DNA of 64,000 nt from Candidatus Melainabacteria bacterium 17Bon1m (GTDB lineage Bacteria > Cyanobacteriota > Vampirovibrionia > Obscuribacterales > Obscuribacteraceae): contig JAVLKG010000001.1 of the NCBI GenBank assembly GCA_032128875.1, positions 576,001 to 640,000 of the forward strand. Reading direction: 5' to 3'. The position numbers and the translations under genes were made by a program. Below the pieces are notes generated by a model. It was given only the letters and a program-made list of their open reading frames with translations, searched no databases and had not been told where the DNA came from. This document shows, piece by piece, positions 16,432-26,039 of this stretch (the first letter of the stretch is position 1; every line of letters begins with the position of its first letter).

Positions 16432-16791
16432 ATGGGCAAAACTATAGATTTGAAACAGCTGGCAGTTGCGAAGTTTCCTGAGAAGGTTGCTGCGCTGCGG
16501 ATGCTGTTTGGTTTTACCCAAGAAGAACTTGCGAGAAGTCTTGGCGTTAACGAAAAGACTATAAGGCGTTGGGAGCGCGAAGATGTTGAACCACGCGCGC
16601 AAAACAAACAAGCCGTGCAGGCACTCATAACCATTGCCGAAGCGCTCTGTGATCTGTTTGAACCAGATGTAATAAAGGTTTGGGTCGATCGTGAAAATCC
16701 GAAGTTGAATGGCGAGCGTCCCAGGGACTTTGTGAAGAGGCCTGGCGGTATCTTTATTGTGGCGAACTTACTTGGTACCGTGGGCCGCTGA
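16432..16791 (+). CDS. HTH-XRE plus Xre/MbcA/ParS C-terminal antitoxin
   Basis: GGAGG RBS; FTQEELARSLGVNEKTIRRWE HTH; WVDRENPKLNGERPRDF. Confidence 0.85.
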   Translation: MGKTIDLKQLAVAKFPEKVAALRMLFGFTQEELARSLGVNEKTIRRWEREDVEPRAQNKQAVQALITIAEALCDLFEPDVIKVWVDRENPKLNGERPRDFVKRPGGIFIVANLLGTVGR

Positions 16792-16792
16792 T

Positions 16793-16891
16793 ATGCACGT
16801 CAATCTCGCTGCGCTAAATAAGCTCCCGTCTCAAAGCATCGATGGCGAGCGACCCATGACGAAATCATGCCTAGGGATGAGGACGCAATGA
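16793..16891 (+). pseudogene. Possible N-terminal remnant of the cognate (RES-type) toxin
   Basis: ATG 1 nt after the antitoxin stop; MHVNLAALNKLPSQSIDGE... ends after 32 aa. Confidence 0.35.
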
Positions 16892-17040
16892 AGGCGTTAG
16901 AGATATTGTGGATATAGACATCCGAATATCTGATTTGTGAAGGCGCAACTAAATCCATCATTCATGCGACCAGTTATGCGTTCCGGTCAGCAGCGCCGAA
17001 TAGTCACATAAGTCAGAAGAATTAGTGAGGAGAAGACATC

Positions 17041-17592
17041 ATGAAAAGTTTAGTGATAAAGAGGCATCCAAGTCTAGTGCCACTTTCAAGAGACAACGGT
17101 GTAGGCCTTTTATGTGCGCAACGATTGCGCAAGGCTGTACGGGCATCCGCAAATGATCGCTTGCAACTGGCAGAACAAATGCGTGTAGTATTCACCGACT
17201 TGATCGGATCATTTCTGGACGATGAGTACAGAGTCTTGTCGCCTGTCATTGCCAACAACGAGTTGCGCGTTCGATTGGAGCAACACCACGAAAGTGTGCG
17301 CAGCTTACTTGCTGAGTTAGAGCAGCTCGAATCCGCACAAGATCCGGGTTTAGGCTTATTGTCGAGAATTGCTGATGTGCTCGATAATTACGTTCGCTGG
17401 GAAGAAAATACGCTTTTCCCTTGTATCCAAGAACAGCTTGACGGTTCGCAATTGGAAAAACTTTCCGAGACAACCGCTGCAATTGAAGCAAGCCGGACGC
17501 GCCCTACGCAGCAACTTCATTCTTCAGTATCTCTCGATAAGCAGTCTGGAGTGGCTGAGACCTGTGTATGCTCAAAAGCGAAAAGCGCATAG
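17041..17592 (+). CDS. Hemerythrin/HHE-domain protein (partly degenerate)
   Basis: KRHPSLVPLSRD, EQHHESVR, YVRWEENTLFP. Confidence 0.75.
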   Translation: MKSLVIKRHPSLVPLSRDNGVGLLCAQRLRKAVRASANDRLQLAEQMRVVFTDLIGSFLDDEYRVLSPVIANNELRVRLEQHHESVRSLLAELEQLESAQDPGLGLLSRIADVLDNYVRWEENTLFPCIQEQLDGSQLEKLSETTAAIEASRTRPTQQLHSSVSLDKQSGVAETCVCSKAKSA

Positions 17593-17632
17593 ATCAGTCA
17601 ATCAATAATTCCATACGATGGAGACCTAAGCC

Positions 17633-17860
17633 ATGAATATTACAATAAATACGACAGTTAAAGAAATAATCGAAGCTCGCCCTGATGCTTTGGATGTATT
17701 TTTGAAGCACGGCGTTGATGTGCCGTTGGAATGCGATGAAAGCATTCAAGATTGCGAACTGAGTCTTTGCGATAGCATGTGTCACATCGATGACGTCGCC
17801 GCTCTGATACGGGATTTGGAGAAGTTGTTCGATTCTGCCAGCATGCCTCAGGTGTCTTGA
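17633..17860 (+). CDS. Small DUF1858/ScdA-N-like protein, Cys-rich
   Basis: ITINTTVKEIIEARPDALDVFLKHGVD...C..C..C..C. Confidence 0.7.
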   Translation: MNITINTTVKEIIEARPDALDVFLKHGVDVPLECDESIQDCELSLCDSMCHIDDVAALIRDLEKLFDSASMPQVS

Positions 17861-17867
17861 TGGTATT

Positions 17868-17903
17868 CACAGTGGTGCCGCACGTGCTGCCGGGACCACT
17901 GTG
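17868..17903. terminator. Hairpin between convergent genes
   Basis: CACAGTGGT...ACCACTGTG inverted repeat. Confidence 0.45.
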
Positions 17904-17906
17904 GTC

Positions 17907-18245
17907 TTACCGCCCGGAAAACTCTTTCATGACTTGTCCGTAGCGTTTGCCGACAGAGCCGCAGACTATGTCGCACAGCTCATAAATGCTGCTGTCACAG
18001 ATGCTGTAGAAGACAAACAATCCTTGGCGTCGTTTTTGAACAATCCCCTGTTCTGCCAGCACAGACAAGTGCTTACTGACGTTTGCCTGGCTCATGCCGC
18101 TCAACTCACACAATTCCTGTACCGAACGCTCTTCCTTAAAGAGGTATTGCAATATTTGCAATCTGGAAGCGTCGGATAGCGCCCGGAAGCGGGACGCAAC
18201 GATTTCGAGCGCCGGTCGTGACAGTAATTTGTTTTTGTCTTTCAT
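17907..18245 (-). CDS. ArsR/SmtB family repressor with C-terminal CxxxC, divergent from the sulfur operon
   Basis: FRALSDASRLQIL, SQANVSKHLSVL, RRQGLFVFYSI, ELCDIVC. Confidence 0.9.
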   Translation of the reverse strand: MKDKNKLLSRPALEIVASRFRALSDASRLQILQYLFKEERSVQELCELSGMSQANVSKHLSVLAEQGIVQKRRQGLFVFYSICDSSIYELCDIVCGSVGKRYGQVMKEFSGR

Positions 18246-18286
18246 ATTGGAAAGCCCATGTTTCACTAAGTCCAGTCTACAACCCT

Positions 18287-18346
18287 TTGGTTGATTCTTC
18301 AATCAATCTTATGGTTGATTCGCTATATAACCAATTAGCGATATAG
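18287..18346. promoter_or_regulatory. Candidate ArsR operator(s) in the divergent promoter region
   Basis: Inverted repeats AATCAA-tcttatgg-TTGATT (18301-18320) and CTATAT...ATATAG (18323-18346); extra TGGTTGAT half-site near 18288. Confidence 0.5.
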
Positions 18347-18375
18347 TGAATTTGATTCCATTTGAGGGCTTCACT

Positions 18376-18951
18376 ATGTCAGAAACGTCTAAATCCTCCG
18401 TTTGCCAGCAATTGGCGCCTGCCGATCTGGCAGCAGTTGCTGGAGATATGGTGCTGCTCGATGTTCGCAGCCCGATTGAATTTGAGACGGAACACATACC
18501 TAACTCTATAAATGTTCCGCTCAACGAGCTTGAATCTCGCTGCGAGGAAGTGTCTCGGCAGGGGCAGCTCGTGGTGATATGTAGGTCCGGCAAACGAGCG
18601 GAACGTGGTGCTTACACCCTCTTAGGCAAAGGTTTTCAGCCCAAGGTGCTGGATGGTGGGTTGGTTGCCTGGCGCAAAGCCGGGCTGCCAGTCAAGGAAG
18701 GTAGAAAGATGCTTCCTATAGAACGTCAGATTCAGCTCATTGTTGGCATCGGTGTCCTGGCGGGCGTTCTCCTCGGTGTTTTCGTAAGTCCATGGTTTTT
18801 CGTCATTCCTGGATTTTTCGGAGCAGGGCTGACCTTTGCAGGTTTGTCTGGAACTTGCGCTTTAGGAATTATGTTGGGGAAGGCTCCCTGGAATGCGCTA
18901 AAAGCGCCGACCACGCAAAAGCAGAGCAACAAATCTAGTTGTTGTCCGTGA
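18376..18951 (+). CDS. Rhodanese plus DUF2892 membrane sulfurtransferase (YgaP-like)
   Basis: LLDVRSPIEF..HIP, active loop CRSGKR, LDGGLVAW; C-terminal TM hairpin GAGLTFAGLSGTC. Confidence 0.92.
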   Translation: MSETSKSSVCQQLAPADLAAVAGDMVLLDVRSPIEFETEHIPNSINVPLNELESRCEEVSRQGQLVVICRSGKRAERGAYTLLGKGFQPKVLDGGLVAWRKAGLPVKEGRKMLPIERQIQLIVGIGVLAGVLLGVFVSPWFFVIPGFFGAGLTFAGLSGTCALGIMLGKAPWNALKAPTTQKQSNKSSCCP

Positions 18952-18968
18952 CAGGCGGAGGTGATTTG

Positions 18969-19712
18969 ATGCTGGGAAGTGCAATTGCTGGACTTGCAAC
19001 CGGCACCCTGCTGGGACTTCTAGGGGGTGGCGGAACCATCATAGCAGTGCCGATTCTTGTTTATGTCCTCGGATTGGAGGCTAAGGCAGCGATAGGCACG
19101 AGCTTGATCATAGTTGGTTTGGCAAGCTTGCTCGCTGCATGGAGTCATTACCGGCATCACTCAGTAATTGTTTCCACTGCTCTTATATTCGGAGCGACGG
19201 GCGCTCTGGGTAGCTTCGCAGGCGCCAAGATTGCACAAGTCATTCCAGACGCGGTGCAACTGAGTTTGTTCGCTATTGTTATGGCATTAGTGGCTTTACT
19301 GATGCTGAAGCATAAACGGCCAACCGAGTTGGCGAGCAACGACACAAAACTCGCACTGCCAGTGGTGGTAGCTTCGGGTGTCGGCGCTGGGGTGTTGACC
19401 GGTTTGATCGGCGTCGGTGGCGGGTTCATTATTGTCCCTGTGTTCACCATACTTTTGCGCATGCCGATAAAGCAAGCAATCGGTACTTCACTGCTTGTGA
19501 TTAGCATCAATAGCATGGTAGGCGCGATTTCATACGCTTCGCGCTTGAGTTTCAATTTCTCAATCTTACCTTTTGCCGTGGGTACCCTGGCTGCTGCTCC
19601 CCTTGCGGGTCGTGTTGCCCAGTACCTCCCACAGGAAAAACTCAGGATTACCTTTGCGGTATCACTATTAATTCTGTCAGCGTGGATGCTGACCAATCAA
19701 ATTTTCCAATAG
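18969..19712 (+). CDS. Sulfite exporter TauE/SafE family permease
   Basis: GLLGGGGTIIAVP and GLIGVGGGFIIVP repeats, AIGTSL twice. Confidence 0.92.
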   Translation: MLGSAIAGLATGTLLGLLGGGGTIIAVPILVYVLGLEAKAAIGTSLIIVGLASLLAAWSHYRHHSVIVSTALIFGATGALGSFAGAKIAQVIPDAVQLSLFAIVMALVALLMLKHKRPTELASNDTKLALPVVVASGVGAGVLTGLIGVGGGFIIVPVFTILLRMPIKQAIGTSLLVISINSMVGAISYASRLSFNFSILPFAVGTLAAAPLAGRVAQYLPQEKLRITFAVSLLILSAWMLTNQIFQ

Positions 19713-19727
19713 CTACTGGAGTTACTT

Positions 19728-21125
19728 ATGTATTTCAAACAGTTTTATCTTGGATGCCTTGCTCATGGCTCTTATCTGCTCGGTTCAGAAGGAGAAGCTG
19801 TTGTCATCGATCCGCAGCGAGATGTGGACCAATACATTGAAGAAGCTAAGAAAGAACGGCTTTCCATCAAATACATAATAGAGACGCATCTGCATGCGGA
19901 TTTTGTAAGTGGGCATAGAGAGCTGGCAGAAAGAACTGGTGCTCAGATTGTTTTCGGCGAAAAGGCCGGCGCATCGTTTCCTCATATAGCAGTCAAAGAC
20001 GGAGATATCTTACAGGTTGGAACGTTGATTCTCTCCATACTTGAGACCCCAGGGCATACTCCTGAAAGCATTTGTGTTCTAGCGAAAGATGCTGCTGACG
20101 ACAAGCCAGCCATGTTGTTCTCTGGGGACACGCTTTTCATCGGGGACGTCGGTAGACCAGATCTCGTCGGCAGTAAAGGCTACAGCGACAAAGAGATGGC
20201 AGGGTTGATGTACGAAAGTCTCCATGAAAAAGTCCTCAAGCTCTCTGATGACGTTGAGGTATTCCCGGCGCACGGTGCTGGATCGCTTTGCGGCAAGCAC
20301 CTTTCGAATGAAAAATCATCCACAATTAGGGAGCAGAAGTTGTTTAACTACGCTCTCAAGCCGATGTCGAAAGAGGCATTTGTAGAGATGTTGACCGCGG
20401 ATCAGCCGGAGGTACCGGCCTACTTCCCGAAAGATGTCGAAATAAATCGCCTGGGTGCTTCGTCTTTGAATACCCTTGCTCGCCCACTACCTTTAGGTGC
20501 AGAAGCAGTGGCAAAAGAGTTGCAGCGAGGCGCAGTTGTTCTCGACATTCGTGGTGCCGCCGAATATGCAGGCGGACACATTAAAGGTTCGTTGAACATC
20601 GGTCTTGGCGGACAGTTTGCCTCATGGTCGGGCACCTTAATCGAAATCGGTACACCCGTTGTTATTGTTGCAAATGAACTTGCTCAGATCGACGAGGCGG
20701 TTATGAGGCTTGCAAGGGTGGGCATCGAAAGCGTAATCGGCTATTTGGAAAATGGAATTAGCACCTGGCATGATGCCGGTTTTGAGGTGACGCAATCAAC
20801 GACAATCTCAGTTGCTGAACTCAAACGAAAGCTTGATGCCGGCGAAGACTTGTTGGTTGTGGACGTCAGGAGATCTGGTGAATACAACTCAGGTCACGTT
20901 CCGAGCGCAATCAATATTCCCTTAGCAGAGCTGGTAGAAGGCATTTCAAATTTGCCGAGAGAGTTGCCGCTGGCAGTAATTTGTGCAAGTGGCTACCGCT
21001 CAACAATTGCGACCAGTGTTCTTGAAAAGGGCGGTCTTAAATTCCTTATGAATGTTCTTGGCGGAACAGCCGCCTGGAAGAATGCCGGTTATGCCACGCA
21101 GAATAAGGAGACAACGACAGTCTGA
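19728..21125 (+). CDS. Persulfide dioxygenase (MBL fold) fused to two rhodanese domains (CstB-like)
   Basis: ETHLHADF, TPGHTPES, GDTLFIGDVGRPDL, PAHGAGSLCG; C-terminal rhodanese ICASGYRS. Confidence 0.92.
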   Translation: MYFKQFYLGCLAHGSYLLGSEGEAVVIDPQRDVDQYIEEAKKERLSIKYIIETHLHADFVSGHRELAERTGAQIVFGEKAGASFPHIAVKDGDILQVGTLILSILETPGHTPESICVLAKDAADDKPAMLFSGDTLFIGDVGRPDLVGSKGYSDKEMAGLMYESLHEKVLKLSDDVEVFPAHGAGSLCGKHLSNEKSSTIREQKLFNYALKPMSKEAFVEMLTADQPEVPAYFPKDVEINRLGASSLNTLARPLPLGAEAVAKELQRGAVVLDIRGAAEYAGGHIKGSLNIGLGGQFASWSGTLIEIGTPVVIVANELAQIDEAVMRLARVGIESVIGYLENGISTWHDAGFEVTQSTTISVAELKRKLDAGEDLLVVDVRRSGEYNSGHVPSAINIPLAELVEGISNLPRELPLAVICASGYRSTIATSVLEKGGLKFLMNVLGGTAAWKNAGYATQNKETTTV

Positions 21126-21227
21126 TTTTGCATTGGAGTGATTTCACTACATTGAAAAGCAGCTCTCAGAGCTTGAGAAAAACTATCAACAACAGCGGTG
21201 AGAAAAAGAATATATGAGGACAGCAAT

Positions 21228-22979
21228 ATGAGAGTTACCGGTTCCACGGCAAAAAAGATTGTCATCGTAGGTGGTGTCGCAGGTGGAATGAGCGCGGCTG
21301 CTAGAGCGCGACGCCTTTCTGAGGATTCGGAAATTATCGTTCTTGAAAGAAGCGGATACGTCTCTTACGCCAATTGCGGTTTGCCATATTTTCTAGGAGG
21401 AGAGATTGAAACGCAGGAGCAATTGATAGTGGTTACGCCTGAGGCTCTGAAGGACAAACTGAATCTCGATGTTCGTGTTCATCATGAGGTCATTGAAATC
21501 GACGCGAAAGCGAAGATGGTATCGGTAAGAGAGACAACCAGCGAGCGGATCTATCAGGAGAGTTATGACGATCTGATTCTTGCTGTTGGAGCAGCTCCTG
21601 TCAGACCTGGAGTGCCTGGCATCGATCTGCCAGGGTTGTTTACGCTGCGCAGTATTGAAGATGTTGAATCGATTCAATCGTGGTTCGAGATTCAGAAGCC
21701 GCGCACTGCGGTAGTGGCAGGTGGTGGCTTCATTGGTCTGGAGATGGCAGAACAGTTAGCTCGCAGAGGAGTTGATGTCACGCTCATTGACGGCAAAGAC
21801 CACGTACTTGCACCGCTTGATATTGAAATGGCAGAACTCGTGCATAAGGAATTGCGAAAGCATGATATTAAGCTTGTGCTTGGTCGTTCGATTGAAGGTT
21901 TCCGTGCACCAGGCGAAATTGCTGGAGCTTCCGAAGATGTGCCAAAATCTTGCTGGGTTCTTGCTGAAAGACATGAGCCCATGCCGGCGGATCTTGTAAT
22001 ACTGGGGCTGGGAATCAGGCCTGAAGTAACGTTAGCGCGCAAAGCCGGATTAATCGTCGGCGAGCGGGGCGGTATTCGGGTAGACGATTATCTACAAACC
22101 AGTTCGCCTAACATATGGGCAGTCGGCGACGCAATTGAGGTGCGTAATCCGGTAAACGGCGAGTGGACACTCATTGCATTGGGAGGTCCGGCTAATCGTC
22201 AAGGACGCATTGCAGCGAACAACATCTTCGGTGCAAAACAAAACTACGATGGCACGATCGGCACCGCCATCCTTCGGGTGTTCGACCTGACTGTTGCATC
22301 GGTAGGGCTCAACGAAGCACAATTGAAATCAAGCTCTATTCCTTATGAAACCATCTTTGTTCATCCTAGCCATCACGCCAGCTATTACCCTGGCGCAGAG
22401 CGTCTTGATATGAAGATGCTCTTCCACAAGGAAGCTGGCACGCTGCTGGGCGCGCAGGTAATCGGTAAAGAAGGCGTCGATAAGCGGATAGATGTGCTCG
22501 CGACAGCGGTCAAGGCACGCATGACCATCAGCGATTTGTCCGAGCTGGAATTGGCATATGCCCCGCCCTTTGGCTCAGCGAAAGATCCAATTAATTTGGC
22601 AGGAATGTCCGGAACTAATGTGCTAGAGGGATTGGTCGAGCAAGTGCAGTGGCATCAAGTCCCAGCTTTGGCCACAAGCGGAGCCGTAATAATTGATGTT
22701 CGCTCGCGCGGCGAGCGTGCCAGAGGGTACATTGATGGCAGTGTTCACATACCACTCCCAGAGCTGAGAAAACGACTGTCAGAGGTACCAGTTGGAAAAG
22801 CGATAGTCACATATTGTCAAAGTGGTCAACGCTCCTACAATGCATCCCGATTCCTCAAACAGAATGGATTCAGTGTCAAGAATTTGTCTGGTGGGTACCT
22901 GACATGGAACTCAATGCAGCAAGGCAAGGAGGAAGGAACGGATCCTCAGAATGCACTACCTGCGGTGCTATCTAAATAA
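21228..22979 (+). CDS. CoA-disulfide/persulfide reductase with C-terminal rhodanese (CoADR-RHD/Npsr type)
   Basis: GGVAGG, SYANCG, GGGFIGLE, YAPPF; rhodanese YCQSGQRS. Confidence 0.93.
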   Translation: MRVTGSTAKKIVIVGGVAGGMSAAARARRLSEDSEIIVLERSGYVSYANCGLPYFLGGEIETQEQLIVVTPEALKDKLNLDVRVHHEVIEIDAKAKMVSVRETTSERIYQESYDDLILAVGAAPVRPGVPGIDLPGLFTLRSIEDVESIQSWFEIQKPRTAVVAGGGFIGLEMAEQLARRGVDVTLIDGKDHVLAPLDIEMAELVHKELRKHDIKLVLGRSIEGFRAPGEIAGASEDVPKSCWVLAERHEPMPADLVILGLGIRPEVTLARKAGLIVGERGGIRVDDYLQTSSPNIWAVGDAIEVRNPVNGEWTLIALGGPANRQGRIAANNIFGAKQNYDGTIGTAILRVFDLTVASVGLNEAQLKSSSIPYETIFVHPSHHASYYPGAERLDMKMLFHKEAGTLLGAQVIGKEGVDKRIDVLATAVKARMTISDLSELELAYAPPFGSAKDPINLAGMSGTNVLEGLVEQVQWHQVPALATSGAVIIDVRSRGERARGYIDGSVHIPLPELRKRLSEVPVGKAIVTYCQSGQRSYNASRFLKQNGFSVKNLSGGYLTWNSMQQGKEEGTDPQNALPAVLSK

Positions 22980-23054
22980 CAGTTTGGCACAGAGGTGAAT
23001 GTTGATATGAACGAATCGATAAAGGTATCAAAAGAAAAAGGAGGGCAAGGTCCC

Positions 23055-23243
23055 ATGGACAGCGTAATCTGGTTCGTTGGAATTGTTGTGTTCTACTTTG
23101 CGATGCAACTCTGGATATTGCCGAAGCTCGGCATACCTACTTGAATGTCACGGAGTTGCTCGGTCGGGCAGCAGAAGAAAACACCTGTTCAGCAAGAGAA
23201 ACAAGAGTCCATTAAGCATGGCGAACAAGGCAAAAGCGATTAG
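23055..23243 (+). CDS. Small single-TM candidate selenoprotein, 62 aa, Sec30 in a UxxxxC motif
   Basis: AAGGAGG RBS; MDSVIWFVGIVVFYFAMQLWILPKLGIPT-TGA(23142-23144)-MSRSCSVGQQKK...KSD-TAG; SECIS-like hairpin immediately 3'; alternative in-frame ATG at 23007. Confidence 0.72.
23155..23172 (+). promoter_or_regulatory. Bacterial SECIS-like hairpin
   Basis: GTTGCTC-GGTC-GGGCAGC; loop begins with G, 17 nt after UGA. Confidence 0.7.
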
Positions 23244-24300
23244 AGCAATCCATGTGACACTGGTGTGTTTACTGGCAGCATTGAGCTTCAGTGGCGCTGT
23301 GTGGTCTGAAGAGTGCCGGACAACTGGTGCTGCACTCTCATCCCCTCTTGGTGCGCGTTGCACTGAAGATCCCTCATGCGTTATTGTTGGAGAGACCCAC
23401 ATGCTGGAGTGGAAGAGTCCAGAACCGGCCAAAATAATTGTGGTGTGTATACACGGACTTGGGTTGTGCGCTCGAGCCTACAAACCATTAGCTAAGGAAC
23501 TTTCTGCTGCAGGGATCGACGGATTTGGTGTGAACGTGCGAGGCTTTGGTCCTGACAGGGACAGACCAGATCGCGCGAAATTGAACTGTATAGAGACCGT
23601 AGGCGACGTGAGCAAATTGCTTACTAGCATTCGTAAAGAACACCCTGGCTACAAGGTCTTTCTCATCGGTGAATCAATGGGTGGTGCACTTGCAATAAGA
23701 ATTGCTGCAGAGAATCCAAGTTTAGTGGATGGTGTCGTCTGCTCTGCTCCTGCCTGGAAATTACTCAAGATGAAGCAGACTGCTGTAAAAGGTGTCTTTG
23801 AGTTGTTTTTGTTTCCTGGAAGTCATCCAGGCCCTGCCGGTCGTGCCATGATGCATCAAGCGACGACCGACCCTGAGCTAACACAGCACTGGTTAACGGA
23901 TCCATCGCATAAGTTGAGACTATCTTTCCATGAAGCTACTTCTCTTTTGCGCTTCATCTCGAAGACAGATACCTACGCCAAACGCATAAATGGACCTGTC
24001 TTGGTTGTTCAGGGTCTTGGTGATCATCTTGTATCGCCTAAAGCAGTTGCCAAACTAGTCAGAGATATCCCTTCTGAGAACAAGACGTTTCTCATTGATG
24101 GAAAGGGAGAGCATCTTGTTCTTGAAGAGGGCAAATTTTCGCCACCGCTTGTTGAGAAGCTGATCGCTTGGATGAAAACTGAGTCCAGCGATCAATCAAG
24201 AATGGCATTCGTGACTGAAGTGGTAAATGATCAGGCGCTATCTTCGAAGGAGAAACGCAGGTTGAAGACATTGCGGCGACTGTCTAGAAATCCAAACTGA
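23218..24300 (+). CDS. Exported alpha/beta hydrolase (lysophospholipase / serine aminopeptidase S33-like)
   Basis: CIHGLG, GESMGG, VQGLGDHLVS, GEHLVL; signal peptide after ATG 23218. Confidence 0.85.
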   Translation: MANKAKAIRAIHVTLVCLLAALSFSGAVWSEECRTTGAALSSPLGARCTEDPSCVIVGETHMLEWKSPEPAKIIVVCIHGLGLCARAYKPLAKELSAAGIDGFGVNVRGFGPDRDRPDRAKLNCIETVGDVSKLLTSIRKEHPGYKVFLIGESMGGALAIRIAAENPSLVDGVVCSAPAWKLLKMKQTAVKGVFELFLFPGSHPGPAGRAMMHQATTDPELTQHWLTDPSHKLRLSFHEATSLLRFISKTDTYAKRINGPVLVVQGLGDHLVSPKAVAKLVRDIPSENKTFLIDGKGEHLVLEEGKFSPPLVEKLIAWMKTESSDQSRMAFVTEVVNDQALSSKEKRRLKTLRRLSRNPN

Positions 24301-24403
24301 CATGCAAGCTTTTTGTGTCCTTCGGGATGCACCCAGGCTAGCACATTCACTACAACGGCCCTGGACAAAGCGGAATGCCGACGCAAGTTAACTCTTAAGT
24401 TGA

Positions 24404-25483
24404 CTACTTCGGAATACCCTTTTCGTACCAACCCTTACTATGGTTTACGATTTTGACGACAGCAAGCATGACCGGAACTTCAATCAAGACACCAACCACG
24501 GTGGCAAGAGCTGCGCCGGAATTGAATCCAAACAAACTAATCGCGGTTGCAACTGCAAGTTCGAAAAAGTTACTGGCACCGATGAGTGCTGAGGGGCCGG
24601 CGACGCAGTGAGCAACACGCAACTTCTTGTTGAGCAAGTATGCAAGCGAAGAATTAAAAAACACCTGAATCAGAATTGGTACCGCCAATATTGCGATTAC
24701 GAGCGGCTGCTTGAGAATTGCTTCACCTTGAAACGCAAATAGCAGTACAAGTGTAATGAGCAAAGCCGAAAGTGAAACGGGATGGAGGAATGCTAGCGTT
24801 TTATCGAACGCGCTCTGACCCTGTTTCAACAACAGACTTCTCCACAACTGTGCAATCAATACTGGTATCACAATGTACAGACCAACCGATATTAGTAGCG
24901 TATCCCACGGGACAGTGATAGAGGATAAACCCAGCAAGAGCCCGACGATGGGCGCAAAAGCAAAGATCATGATTAAGTCATTAACTGCAACTTGCGATAA
25001 TGTGAAATAAGGATCGCCTTTGGTCAACTGGCTCCAAACGAAAACCATTGCTGTGCACGGAGCGGCTGCGAGCAGAATCAATCCTGCTACATAGCTGTCG
25101 AGCTGATCTTGCGGCAGGTACTGAGCAAAAACTACGCGAATGAATATGTAAGCTAGAAGAGCCATCGAGAACGGCTTGATCGCCCAGTTAATGAACAGTG
25201 TCACCGCGATGCCTTTCCAGTGTTGCTTTACTTGTCCTAGCGCCCCGAAGTCAATCTTCAAAAGCATGGGCACAATCATCAACCAAATCAAAATCCCTAC
25301 TGGAATATTTACTCTGGCAATTTCAAGCGAACCGATGAATTTGACCGGACCCGACAAGAGCTGACCCAGCGCAATTCCTACGCCAATACAGAGAAAAACC
25401 CAGACTGTCAGCCAACGTTCGAAGAACCCTATAGATGCCTGAGTTGCTCCGCTGTCTGACACTTCACTTTCTTGAATGCTCAT
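24404..25483 (-). CDS. acr3: Arsenite efflux transporter Acr3
   Basis: FFERWLTVWV, AAAPCTAMVFVW, GASNFFELAVA, GVLIEVPVM. Confidence 0.96.
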   Translation of the reverse strand: MSIQESEVSDSGATQASIGFFERWLTVWVFLCIGVGIALGQLLSGPVKFIGSLEIARVNIPVGILIWLMIVPMLLKIDFGALGQVKQHWKGIAVTLFINWAIKPFSMALLAYIFIRVVFAQYLPQDQLDSYVAGLILLAAAPCTAMVFVWSQLTKGDPYFTLSQVAVNDLIMIFAFAPIVGLLLGLSSITVPWDTLLISVGLYIVIPVLIAQLWRSLLLKQGQSAFDKTLAFLHPVSLSALLITLVLLFAFQGEAILKQPLVIAILAVPILIQVFFNSSLAYLLNKKLRVAHCVAGPSALIGASNFFELAVATAISLFGFNSGAALATVVGVLIEVPVMLAVVKIVNHSKGWYEKGIPK

Positions 25484-25881
25484 CTACAATCCATGGGTAC
25501 TTCAGTCTTTGCGAGTTCTTCTACTTTTGCTTTGATCTCATCGCGCACACGCCTGAACACATCGAGAGGTTGCCCTTTTGGATCGTCGATATTCCAGTTC
25601 GCCTGGGTGCCAATGAATGTAGATGGGCAGAAATCAGCGGTCTTGACCGAGCACATAGAAATCACCGCGTCATAGTCGGCAAGTCTCTCGTTGTCGATTG
25701 TTTTGGAGAATTGCTTGGATATGTCGATACCTACTTCTTCCATAACCTTCACCGCGTCTGGATTGACGCCGCTGCCGGACTTAACACCGGCGCTGTCGGA
25801 CTCAAGACCTAACTGGCGGCCAAAACCTTCGGCTATCTGGCTGCGACAAGTATTTTCTATACAGATAAACAAGACTCTCAA
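25480..25881 (-). CDS. arsC: Arsenate reductase, thioredoxin-type LMW-PTP fold
   Basis: LFICIENTCRSQIAEG P-loop, WNIDDPKG...FRRVRDEI; probable TTG start after GGAG. Confidence 0.88.
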   Translation of the reverse strand: MRVLFICIENTCRSQIAEGFGRQLGLESDSAGVKSGSGVNPDAVKVMEEVGIDISKQFSKTIDNERLADYDAVISMCSVKTADFCPSTFIGTQANWNIDDPKGQPLDVFRRVRDEIKAKVEELAKTEVPMDCR

Positions 25882-25930
25882 TTGCAGCACTCCAACTCTT
25901 CGATTTGTAATGGTTCTCCCAATCGCATAA

Positions 25931-26017
25931 ACCATTAAGGACCAACATTTTGAATACTTCCAAGCGTAATTTTTTCGCCAGAGCCGGAAATGCTCTGAAT
26001 GCGTTTTTGTTTTCCAT
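25931..26017 (-). pseudogene. arsR: Truncated arsR (first ~29 codons only)
   Basis: MENKNAFRAFPALAKKLRLEVFKMLVLNG matches ArsR helices 1-2, then similarity is lost; no HTH. Confidence 0.7.
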
Positions 26018-26039
26018 ATTTCCAATATTATCGAAATAT
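26016..26039. promoter_or_regulatory. ArsR operator-like imperfect palindrome overlapping the arsR start
   Basis: ATATTTC-caatattatc-GAAATAT. Confidence 0.6.

Follow-up and report, generated by a model that had tools for sequence, protein, structure and literature searches.

The archetype of the bacterial selenocysteine (Sec) gene is Escherichia coli fdhF, in which the GGUC loop of a short coding-region hairpin lies about 11 nt downstream of an in-frame UGA codon. Genes of this class, read through SelB and a selenocysteine insertion sequence (SECIS), are the closest described systems, as regards decoding, to a small gene at positions 23055..23243 (+ strand) of a 64,000-nt stretch of DNA from Candidatus Melainabacteria bacterium 17Bon1m (contig JAVLKG010000001.1, positions 576,001 to 640,000; hereafter the window, to which all coordinates refer). 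An earlier note on this DNA had put the gene forward as a candidate for an unannotated 62-residue membrane selenoprotein inside a persulfide-detoxification operon. The gene shares with the fdhF class an in-frame UGA, a short hairpin within the coding region, a G-rich loop (here 17 nt away) and a genome that holds the Sec machinery; it differs from fdhF in that its product is unrelated to formate dehydrogenase, its stem is a plain one of 6-7 bp with no bulge, and no Rfam family matches it. Judged from comparison with its homologs, 23055..23243 is, as an explanation taken whole, very probably a genuine selenoprotein gene of a widespread unnamed family, and the narrower claim that a real selenoprotein is encoded here is one that we hold with still greater confidence.

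As regards the protein, SELENOS and SELENOK are alike in having one N-terminal helix, a disordered tail with Sec (cytosolic in those proteins) and a nearby Cys thought to form a selenenylsulfide. Pfam holds models of both SelK and SelS, and kinship to them was rejected after a Pfam-A scan of the window protein at E <= 10 returned 0 families. SelS is reported to be a 189-aa transmembrane protein with Sec188 and Cys174 (PMC3628699). In the protein described here, by contrast, Sec stands at the predicted membrane boundary and not at the C-terminal end, the SECIS-like element is of the bacterial, coding-region kind, and the size is a third of that. A second likeness is to TsoA (LULAxC motif, NF045695) and other small selenoproteins in Table 1 of a review (PMC13188914), which are similarly small and genomics-found, with a short Sec...Cys motif and sulfur or rhodanese neighbours. 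The present motif is, however, U-x4-C after G-x-x-T and not L-U-L-A-x-C, and identity with TsoA/TsoY, GOS_B/C, OS_HP3 or KCU-star was dismissed, none of their NCBIfam models having matched (E <= 1).

Read with TGA translated as U, as throughout for the Sec gene, the open reading frame (ORF) comprises 62 codons, of which the UGA is codon 30 (23142..23144), followed by a TAG stop at 23241-23243. All its parts are on the + strand. A Shine-Dalgarno sequence, AAGGAGG (23038..23044), can be read 10 nt ahead of the ATG at 23055. Residues 4-22 (23064..23120) form a single predicted membrane helix, as judged from the hydrophobic stretch, the alignment and an AlphaFold2 model of a homolog, and columns conserved in homologs define the signature W-I-L-P-K-L-G-I-x-T-U-M-S-x-S-C, which runs from W20 to C35 (23112..23159). 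The Cys that ends it (Cys35, 23157..23159) is near-universal after the UGA and is the likely partner of Sec30 in a U-x4-C arrangement. Overlapping these codons is a SECIS-like hairpin (23155..23172), recognized from pairing, covariation and frozen codons, whose pieces were read from the sequence: a 5' arm GTTGCTC (23155-23161) that begins 10 nt past the UGA, a loop GGTC (GGUC in the RNA; 23162-23165) 17 nt past it, and a 3' arm GGGCAGC (23166-23172). The remaining residues (23160..23240) make up a variable hydrophilic tail, rich in S, K, E and Q and predicted to be disordered from its composition and its low predicted local distance difference test (pLDDT) values; its last 23 nt (26 nt counting the stop codon) lie within the start of the hydrolase gene downstream (ATG 23218). 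Translation table 11 breaks the same DNA into two ORFs, one of 49 aa that stops at 23144 and one of 32 aa at 23145-23243. The ribosome-binding site, membrane stretch, PKLGIPT, TGA, MSRSC, charged tail and hairpin are thus all present at the positions that the earlier note had given them.

The in-frame TGA is conserved across homologs, or is else a Cys codon. A search with the 62-residue protein, in which stops were read through, covered its own genome and 60 relatives (61 genomes) and gave 35 strong matches (E <= 2.2e-6) in 23 of the 61; every one of the 35, among them a second copy in the window's own genome, holds exactly one in-frame TGA, and the alignments extend beyond it. A pattern scan of one genome per species (107 relatives, 80 loci kept) recovered the signature by motif search in 77 of the 80 loci, with 78 hits, in which the Sec codon is TGA 76 times, TGT once (locus L051) and TGC once (locus L111). 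Among 301 genomes of Planctomycetota, searched with a profile built from Cys forms only, 30 gave matches, that is, about one in ten of those sampled, and 29 of these 30 have an in-frame TGA; by motif search, TGA stands at the Sec position in 25 of the loci, four fall outside the pattern, and one weak hit has TGG. Homologs therefore keep either TGA or Cys at this codon, as the earlier note had hoped to find.

Cys forms were met far more often among deposited proteins. A profile search over 1.84 billion protein representatives (clusters at 50% identity) returned 515 clusters at E <= 0.001, and among the best 150 of these 515 the Sec position is Cys in 91, is the exact end of the protein in 24, and lies outside the pattern in seven, the others carrying residues that are considered below. 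A word-based search recovered a single full-length Cys form along with five truncated calls (P0003-P0007), all of which finish at ...GI(P/S)T, so the prediction that standard gene callers would truncate the gene was borne out. Because TGA forms get truncated, protein libraries over-represent Cys forms; in the genomes searched, TGA forms strongly predominate.

Conservation at the level of the protein does not stop at the UGA. For codon and reading-frame counts we used 79 distinct TGA forms. The Ser two residues after U is written, among 77 forms, with all six Ser codons (TCG 22, AGC 18, TCC 14, TCT 10, AGT 5, and TCA 4), and the codon of the Ser just ahead of Cys35 varies too. The frame after the UGA is open for at least 16 codons in all 79 forms (with a median of 32 codons after U), whereas the other two frames are shut within 15 codons in 26 and 36 of the 79, respectively. 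Insertions between the UGA and the Cys amount to whole codons (one or two), with the Cys retained; a Cys occurs within eight codons past the UGA in 77 of the 79 forms, and Cys35 is invariant both in the alignment of Sec forms (A1) and in that of 61 Cys forms (A4). These patterns indicate that protein-coding conservation continues downstream of the UGA. Both the M-S-x-S-C stretch and the hairpin proved to be conserved in homologs, which was the support that the earlier note had looked for.

Evidence that the RNA is constrained in addition to the protein comes from the comparison of hairpins. In the seven-pair structure, 78.9% of cells pair, versus 29-51% when the partner columns are slid. Wobble positions covary: the pair 30-39 is C-G in 58 sequences and U-A in eight, and a second wobble pair is C-G in 50, U-A in six, U-G in five, and G-C in one. 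The outermost stem position is paired in only 16 of 78 sequences, which leaves the inner 6 bp as the conserved core. The two codons that follow Cys35, which constitute the loop and the top of the stem, are frozen: Ser is TCG in 63 of 72 TGA forms (versus 17.7% of Ser codons in flanking genes), and the next codon, for Val, is GTC in 63 of 64 (versus 28.7%). In one stem pair, the window gene and its paralog in the same genome have different bases at both positions (TGC...GGG and TGT...GAA, respectively), and Akkermansiaceae, Pirellulaceae and GC-rich Planctomycetota have different hairpin sequences at the same position, with GGA or GUC loops in the GC-rich Planctomycetota. The two Cys forms found at the DNA level bear on the same point. 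L111 (TGC) retains Cys-Ser-Val but spells the last two residues AGC GTG, and its hairpin is therefore lost; no selA was found in its genome. L051 (TGT) is the sole sequence with GTT rather than GTC in the loop, and its genome has selA.

In 102 of 103 distinct TGA forms, the loop of the minimum free energy hairpin lies 10-28 nt past the UGA (median 17), and in 95 of those 102 a G is among the first two loop bases. Both properties fit the bacterial SECIS consensus quoted in the review, namely an apical loop 16-37 nt from the UGA with G in the first loop positions (PMC13188914). The TGA forms fold at lower energies than random in-frame coding pieces taken from the same loci (median -11.3 versus -8.9 kcal/mol; Mann-Whitney P-value = 5.6e-11, which overstates the evidence because related sequences are not independent). 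From these comparisons, the hairpin is evidently under selection of its own, apart from that on the protein.

The host genome (7.55 Mb) has everything that such decoding would call for: selA (496.8 bits), selB (285.8 bits), selD (370.2 bits) and tRNA-Sec (67.5, against a gathering score of 47), the four genes that the earlier note had suggested checking, were all found over curated cut-offs. Apart from Sec decoding, TGA is an ordinary stop in this genome, where it terminates 901 of the 3546 ORFs of at least 300 codons (25%). Across the related genomes, selA is over its cut-off in 21 of 23 that have a TGA form versus 11 of 38 that do not. The corresponding contrast in Planctomycetota (selA at E <= 1e-30 in 27 of 29 TGA-form genomes versus 221 of 301 overall) is consistent but weak. 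Sec machinery is, by this last count, very common in the sampled Planctomycetota. Homologs that run on past ...GIPT, Cys-containing orthologs and a complete Sec machinery are therefore all in evidence, and it was on these three points that the earlier note had let its proposal stand or fall. On this comparative evidence, the UGA at codon 30 is very probably decoded as Sec via the SelB pathway, under the direction of the short hairpin with its G-rich apical loop (GGUC here).

Several results weigh against this reading. Taken by itself, the window hairpin is the minimum free energy fold of a 39-nt piece at -9.6 kcal/mol with a z-score of -1.37, and 20 of 200 shuffles equal it; on the 64 nt after the UGA, a different fold wins (z-score of +0.44). 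The single hairpin is thus near chance, and the case for more than chance is made by the comparison across 100+ homologous loci. Resampling of synonymous codons puts just 32 of 79 hairpins in the best 5%. RNAalifold, applied to all 78 mixed-clade sequences, arrived at no common structure, since the hairpins differ from clade to clade, and an Rfam cmscan of 22000-24500 (E <= 10) matched no SECIS family, its only hit being an unrelated miRNA (E 5.2). Two Verrucomicrobiales metagenome-assembled genomes (loci L126 and L128) carry the TGA and the hairpin with no Cys within eight codons, so the U-x4-C pair is not shared by all members. selA was not found in two of the 23 related TGA-form genomes, which are metagenome-assembled and 82% and 84% complete, nor in two of the 29 from Planctomycetota. 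At the protein level, the best 150 of the 515 representatives include W (18), G (2), R (4), S (3) and L (1) at the Sec position. The W and G entries probably reflect depositing pipelines that translated TGA under tables 4 or 25. Each of the Arg, Ser and Leu residues is one base from TGA. Finally, four runs labelled as RNA-Seq (one plankton sample, one study) match the window letter for letter over 16500-25600, in contigs of 15-150 kb (up to 156 kb), which look more like DNA, or like the assembly's own source, than like transcripts and give no evidence of transcription.

The product would be a protein of ~60 residues with a very short N-terminus, a highly conserved helix, the motif L-P-x-x-G-x-x-T-U-M-S-x-x-C at the point of exit from the membrane, and a charged tail that is both variable and disordered. 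In the Sec-form alignment, Y14, F15, A16, Q18, W20 and L22 of the helix are invariant or nearly so, and the invariant columns are Q18, W20, L22, P23, G26, T29, U30 and C35; in the 61 Cys forms, L22, P23, G26, T29, C30 and C35 are invariant. AlphaFold2 modelled a Cys-form homolog (P0002, with a 61-row alignment) as a helix over residues 2-25 (pLDDT ~90) and gave the remainder a pLDDT of 52-68. Lys and Arg together average 0.19 in the five residues that precede the helix versus 3.0 in the 19 that follow, a pattern that, under the positive-inside rule, would put both the tail and the U-x4-C site on the cytoplasmic side. The helix is unusually conserved, its mid-helix Gln included, which suggests that inside the membrane it touches either another copy of itself or a partner.

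We lean toward the view that U-x4-C is a redox pair, in which Sec30 and Cys35 would cycle between selenol/thiol and selenenylsulfide at the membrane surface. The selenolate might attack or carry sulfane sulfur, be it in persulfides, polysulfides or membrane-dissolved sulfur, and pass it to the rhodanese domains of the proteins encoded upstream (Rhd-YgaP, PDO-Rhd, and CoADR-RHD). This choice of substrate is tentative: it leads the candidates, but we would put it at rather less than an even chance.

The genes in question form a co-oriented series on the + strand. First comes a rhodanese fused to a YgaP-like membrane domain and ending in Cys-Cys-Pro (Rhd-YgaP; 18346..18951; Pfam PF00581, PF11127), followed by a TauE/SafE-type sulfite exporter (18939..19712; PF01925, E 8e-50) and a protein of the metallo-beta-lactamase (MBL) fold that resembles persulfide dioxygenases and has rhodanese domains (PDO-Rhd; 19728..21125; PF00753, PF00581); against the NCBIfam model Blh (bifunctional sulfur transferase/dioxygenase), the latter scores 61 bits, below the 625-bit cut-off. 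Directly upstream of the Sec gene is CoADR-RHD, a CoA-disulfide-reductase-type flavoprotein with a C-terminal rhodanese (21198..22979; Pfam; TIGR03385 at 483.5 bits, below the 578.8 cut-off), and directly downstream is an alpha/beta hydrolase (23218..24300; PF12146, E 1.7e-36; likely start ATG 23218), whose N-terminus may, by eye, be a signal peptide. The Pfam matches agree with the identities given to these two flanking genes beforehand. In their rhodanese-YgaP, TauE, MBL dioxygenase-rhodanese and CoADR-rhodanese genes, the window operon resembles CstR/BigR-type operons for the detoxification of persulfides and other reactive sulfur species (RSS), and at homologous loci they are accompanied by a divergently encoded ArsR-family regulator that weakly matches BigR (42 bits, below cut-off). 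To our knowledge, the described CstR/BigR-type operons include no small membrane selenoprotein, and a literature search found none in persulfide/RSS detoxification operons.

How far this neighbourhood recurs was counted at 77 distinct loci with up to 6 kb of flank on each side, and within 2.5 kb of the gene unless the flank is named. A rhodanese-domain ORF is present at 26 of the 77 loci (the same query yields 10 ORFs in the whole 7.55-Mb genome), a hydrolase at 15 (as the next downstream gene at 10), a CoADR-type gene at 11 and a dioxygenase at eight; within the flank, there is an ArsR-family regulator at 16, a methyltransferase at 12 and TauE at eight. The recurrent gene order is ArsR< Rhd-YgaP> TauE> PDO> CoADR> Sec-gene> hydrolase>, and further patterns are ArsR-rhodanese< methyltransferase> Sec-gene> and TauE< Sec-gene>. 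All of the sulfur-type patterns are confined to the Obscuribacterales-type subgroup. At L065, L066, L068, L069, L074 and similar loci, an ArsR-rhodanese fusion regulator is divergent to a unit of an S-adenosylmethionine (SAM)-methyltransferase and the Sec gene, the methyltransferase being without a specific family.

Rhd-YgaP also offers a possible redox partner for the small selenoprotein in its vicinal dithiol tail: across 41 sequences (the window's 18346-18951 plus homologs at L050-L076), the C-terminus is Cys-Cys-x (...SSCCP in the window), with C189 invariant and C190 nearly so. A complex prediction for a Cys-form homolog with the window Rhd-YgaP scored 0.00 ('no answer', controls not run) and says nothing either way. 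The YgaP-like membrane domain (PF11127, DUF2892) resembles the Sec protein in being a small membrane domain with a conserved Cys in the same operon. Kinship between the two was rejected: hhalign against the window's own YgaP domain gave 0.3% probability, and there was no Pfam hit at E <= 10.

The selenoprotein might instead have another job, either in general redox chemistry at the membrane surface (for example, the reduction of lipid or organic hydroperoxides, with thioredoxin recycling the selenoprotein) or in the binding of soft metals and metalloids (As, Hg, Te, Se) through its Sec and Cys, and we consider this a serious possibility that falls short of probable. Much of the genomic context points that way. 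Some 51 of the 77 loci are without a rhodanese-domain ORF within 2.5 kb; the Akkermansiaceae copies come after argG and a truncated globin gene; no gene recurs within 1.5 kb of the Planctomycetota copies; and the second copy in the same genome (G000:C1:1048535-1048717; L129:7535-7717, +), which has a GTG start and the same motif and GGUC hairpin, adjoins unrelated genes (DUF1444, DUF1643) and not a sulfur operon. One protein representative is joined to a thioredoxin domain. In the window, moreover, a convergent arsenic cluster (24404-26025, - strand) follows downstream, with ACR3 at 24404-25483 (375 bits, above its cut-off) and an ArsC-like reductase (below its own); other loci have ArsA, ArsD, ArsC and ArsR at the same position, and arsenic genes occur at seven of the 77 loci. 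Yet in the conserved operons it is with rhodanese, TauE, PDO and CoADR that the Sec gene is co-oriented, whereas the ars genes are on the opposite strand, and no peroxidase or metal-transport gene recurs as a neighbour. The partnership with the rhodanese, persulfide dioxygenase and CoADR-RHD that the earlier note had suggested accordingly stands as a neighbourhood in one clade (the 26 of 77 loci with a rhodanese ORF); a shared function can be put forward only conditionally, and the family is met in unrelated contexts as well.

A different kind of alternative is that the gene simply ends at the UGA, encoding a 29-residue membrane peptide, and that the conservation downstream belongs to a regulatory RNA or a terminator. 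UGA does, after all, serve as a normal stop in this genome, gene callers close the protein at it, and the hairpin region is conserved at the nucleotide level; Sec insertion competes with termination, so that some 29-residue product is likely in any case. As an account of the gene, however, this is very improbable, because the residues after the UGA are conserved through synonymous changes (TCN/AGY switches included), the frame is open in every one of the 79 forms with insertions only of whole codons, Cys codons replace the UGA in two loci and in 91 of the best 150 representatives to give one continuous protein, and the TGC form, despite its other codons and the loss of the hairpin, still encodes C-S-V.

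Still less credible is a pair of tiny genes, the first for a membrane peptide of 29 residues and the second for a hydrophilic one of 32, with translation restarting at the ATG after the TGA. An ATG does follow the TGA in 73 of the 79 distinct forms, and table 11 lists the second ORF; but the other six forms carry a Leu or Ala codon in its place, the second ORF lacks a ribosome-binding site ahead of it, and the Cys forms are single proteins, most of which have Met or Leu after the Cys (C-M-S-G-x-C), so this residue is a feature of the protein. That the UGA is read as Trp or Gly, through a changed code or near-cognate read-through, can be set aside as equally far-fetched despite the W and G entries among the best 150 representatives (which are, in a protein-level reading, most simply gene calls under table 4 or 25), given that TGA ends a quarter of long ORFs, that the selA and selB genes have no internal stops, that the alternation seen at this position in DNA is to Cys and not Trp, and that the gene has a SECIS-like hairpin and the genome the full Sec machinery.

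Returning to the gene as that of a selenoprotein, the family appears, from the homologs recovered, to be spread over Planctomycetota, Verrucomicrobiota, Melainabacteria and other lineages. It matches no named family, as the earlier note had surmised: the Sec form has no Pfam match at E <= 10 and, in NCBIfam at E <= 1, only a chance-level archaellum hit (E 0.16), and scans of ten Cys forms gave no relevant Pfam or NCBIfam family. The source names of cluster members are all 'hypothetical protein', and a protein atlas has the family as an unnamed cluster only. A 2026 review lists 119 prokaryotic selenoprotein families or subfamilies with motifs and model ids; the U-x4-C motif is in none of the 119 listed there, and none of their models matched (PMC13188914). 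A literature search that took in passages on deep-Sep and BSepDB found no description of such a family, though the supplementary family tables of those two sources, which lie outside the passages covered, could list it. The protein family is new; the mechanism of its decoding is already known, being ordinary bacterial Sec insertion. One Cys form, P0115 (208 aa), is continuous with a thioredoxin domain (PF00085, E 3e-26) and may be a true fusion or two adjacent genes that have been merged.

Most selenoprotein families consist mostly of Cys forms, and a family dominated by Sec is for that reason unusual. A more speculative idea, which we think unlikely, is that a selenolate at the membrane surface opens S8 and polysulfides or lipid hydroperoxides, and that this Sec-dominated family, among the smallest selenoproteins (~50-80 residues, one helix), is a convergent bacterial counterpart of SelK/SelS and GPx4 chemistry; if so, it may be one reason why these lineages retain the Sec machinery. 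Selenoprotein genes are routinely lost in annotation, and members of this family are always truncated or missed. As read here, the bacterial selenoproteome would gain a member anchored in the membrane, Melainabacteria a selenoprotein family, and bacterial persulfide-stress operons a new component; at ~60 residues, the protein is also small enough to be synthesized and could serve as a minimal model of selenenylsulfide chemistry on the membrane surface.

In the window, the sulfur operon is closely preceded by a gene with a hemerythrin domain (17041-17592, + strand; PF01814). Like the truncated globin whose gene the Sec gene of Akkermansiaceae follows, its product is a small gas- or ligand-binding protein.

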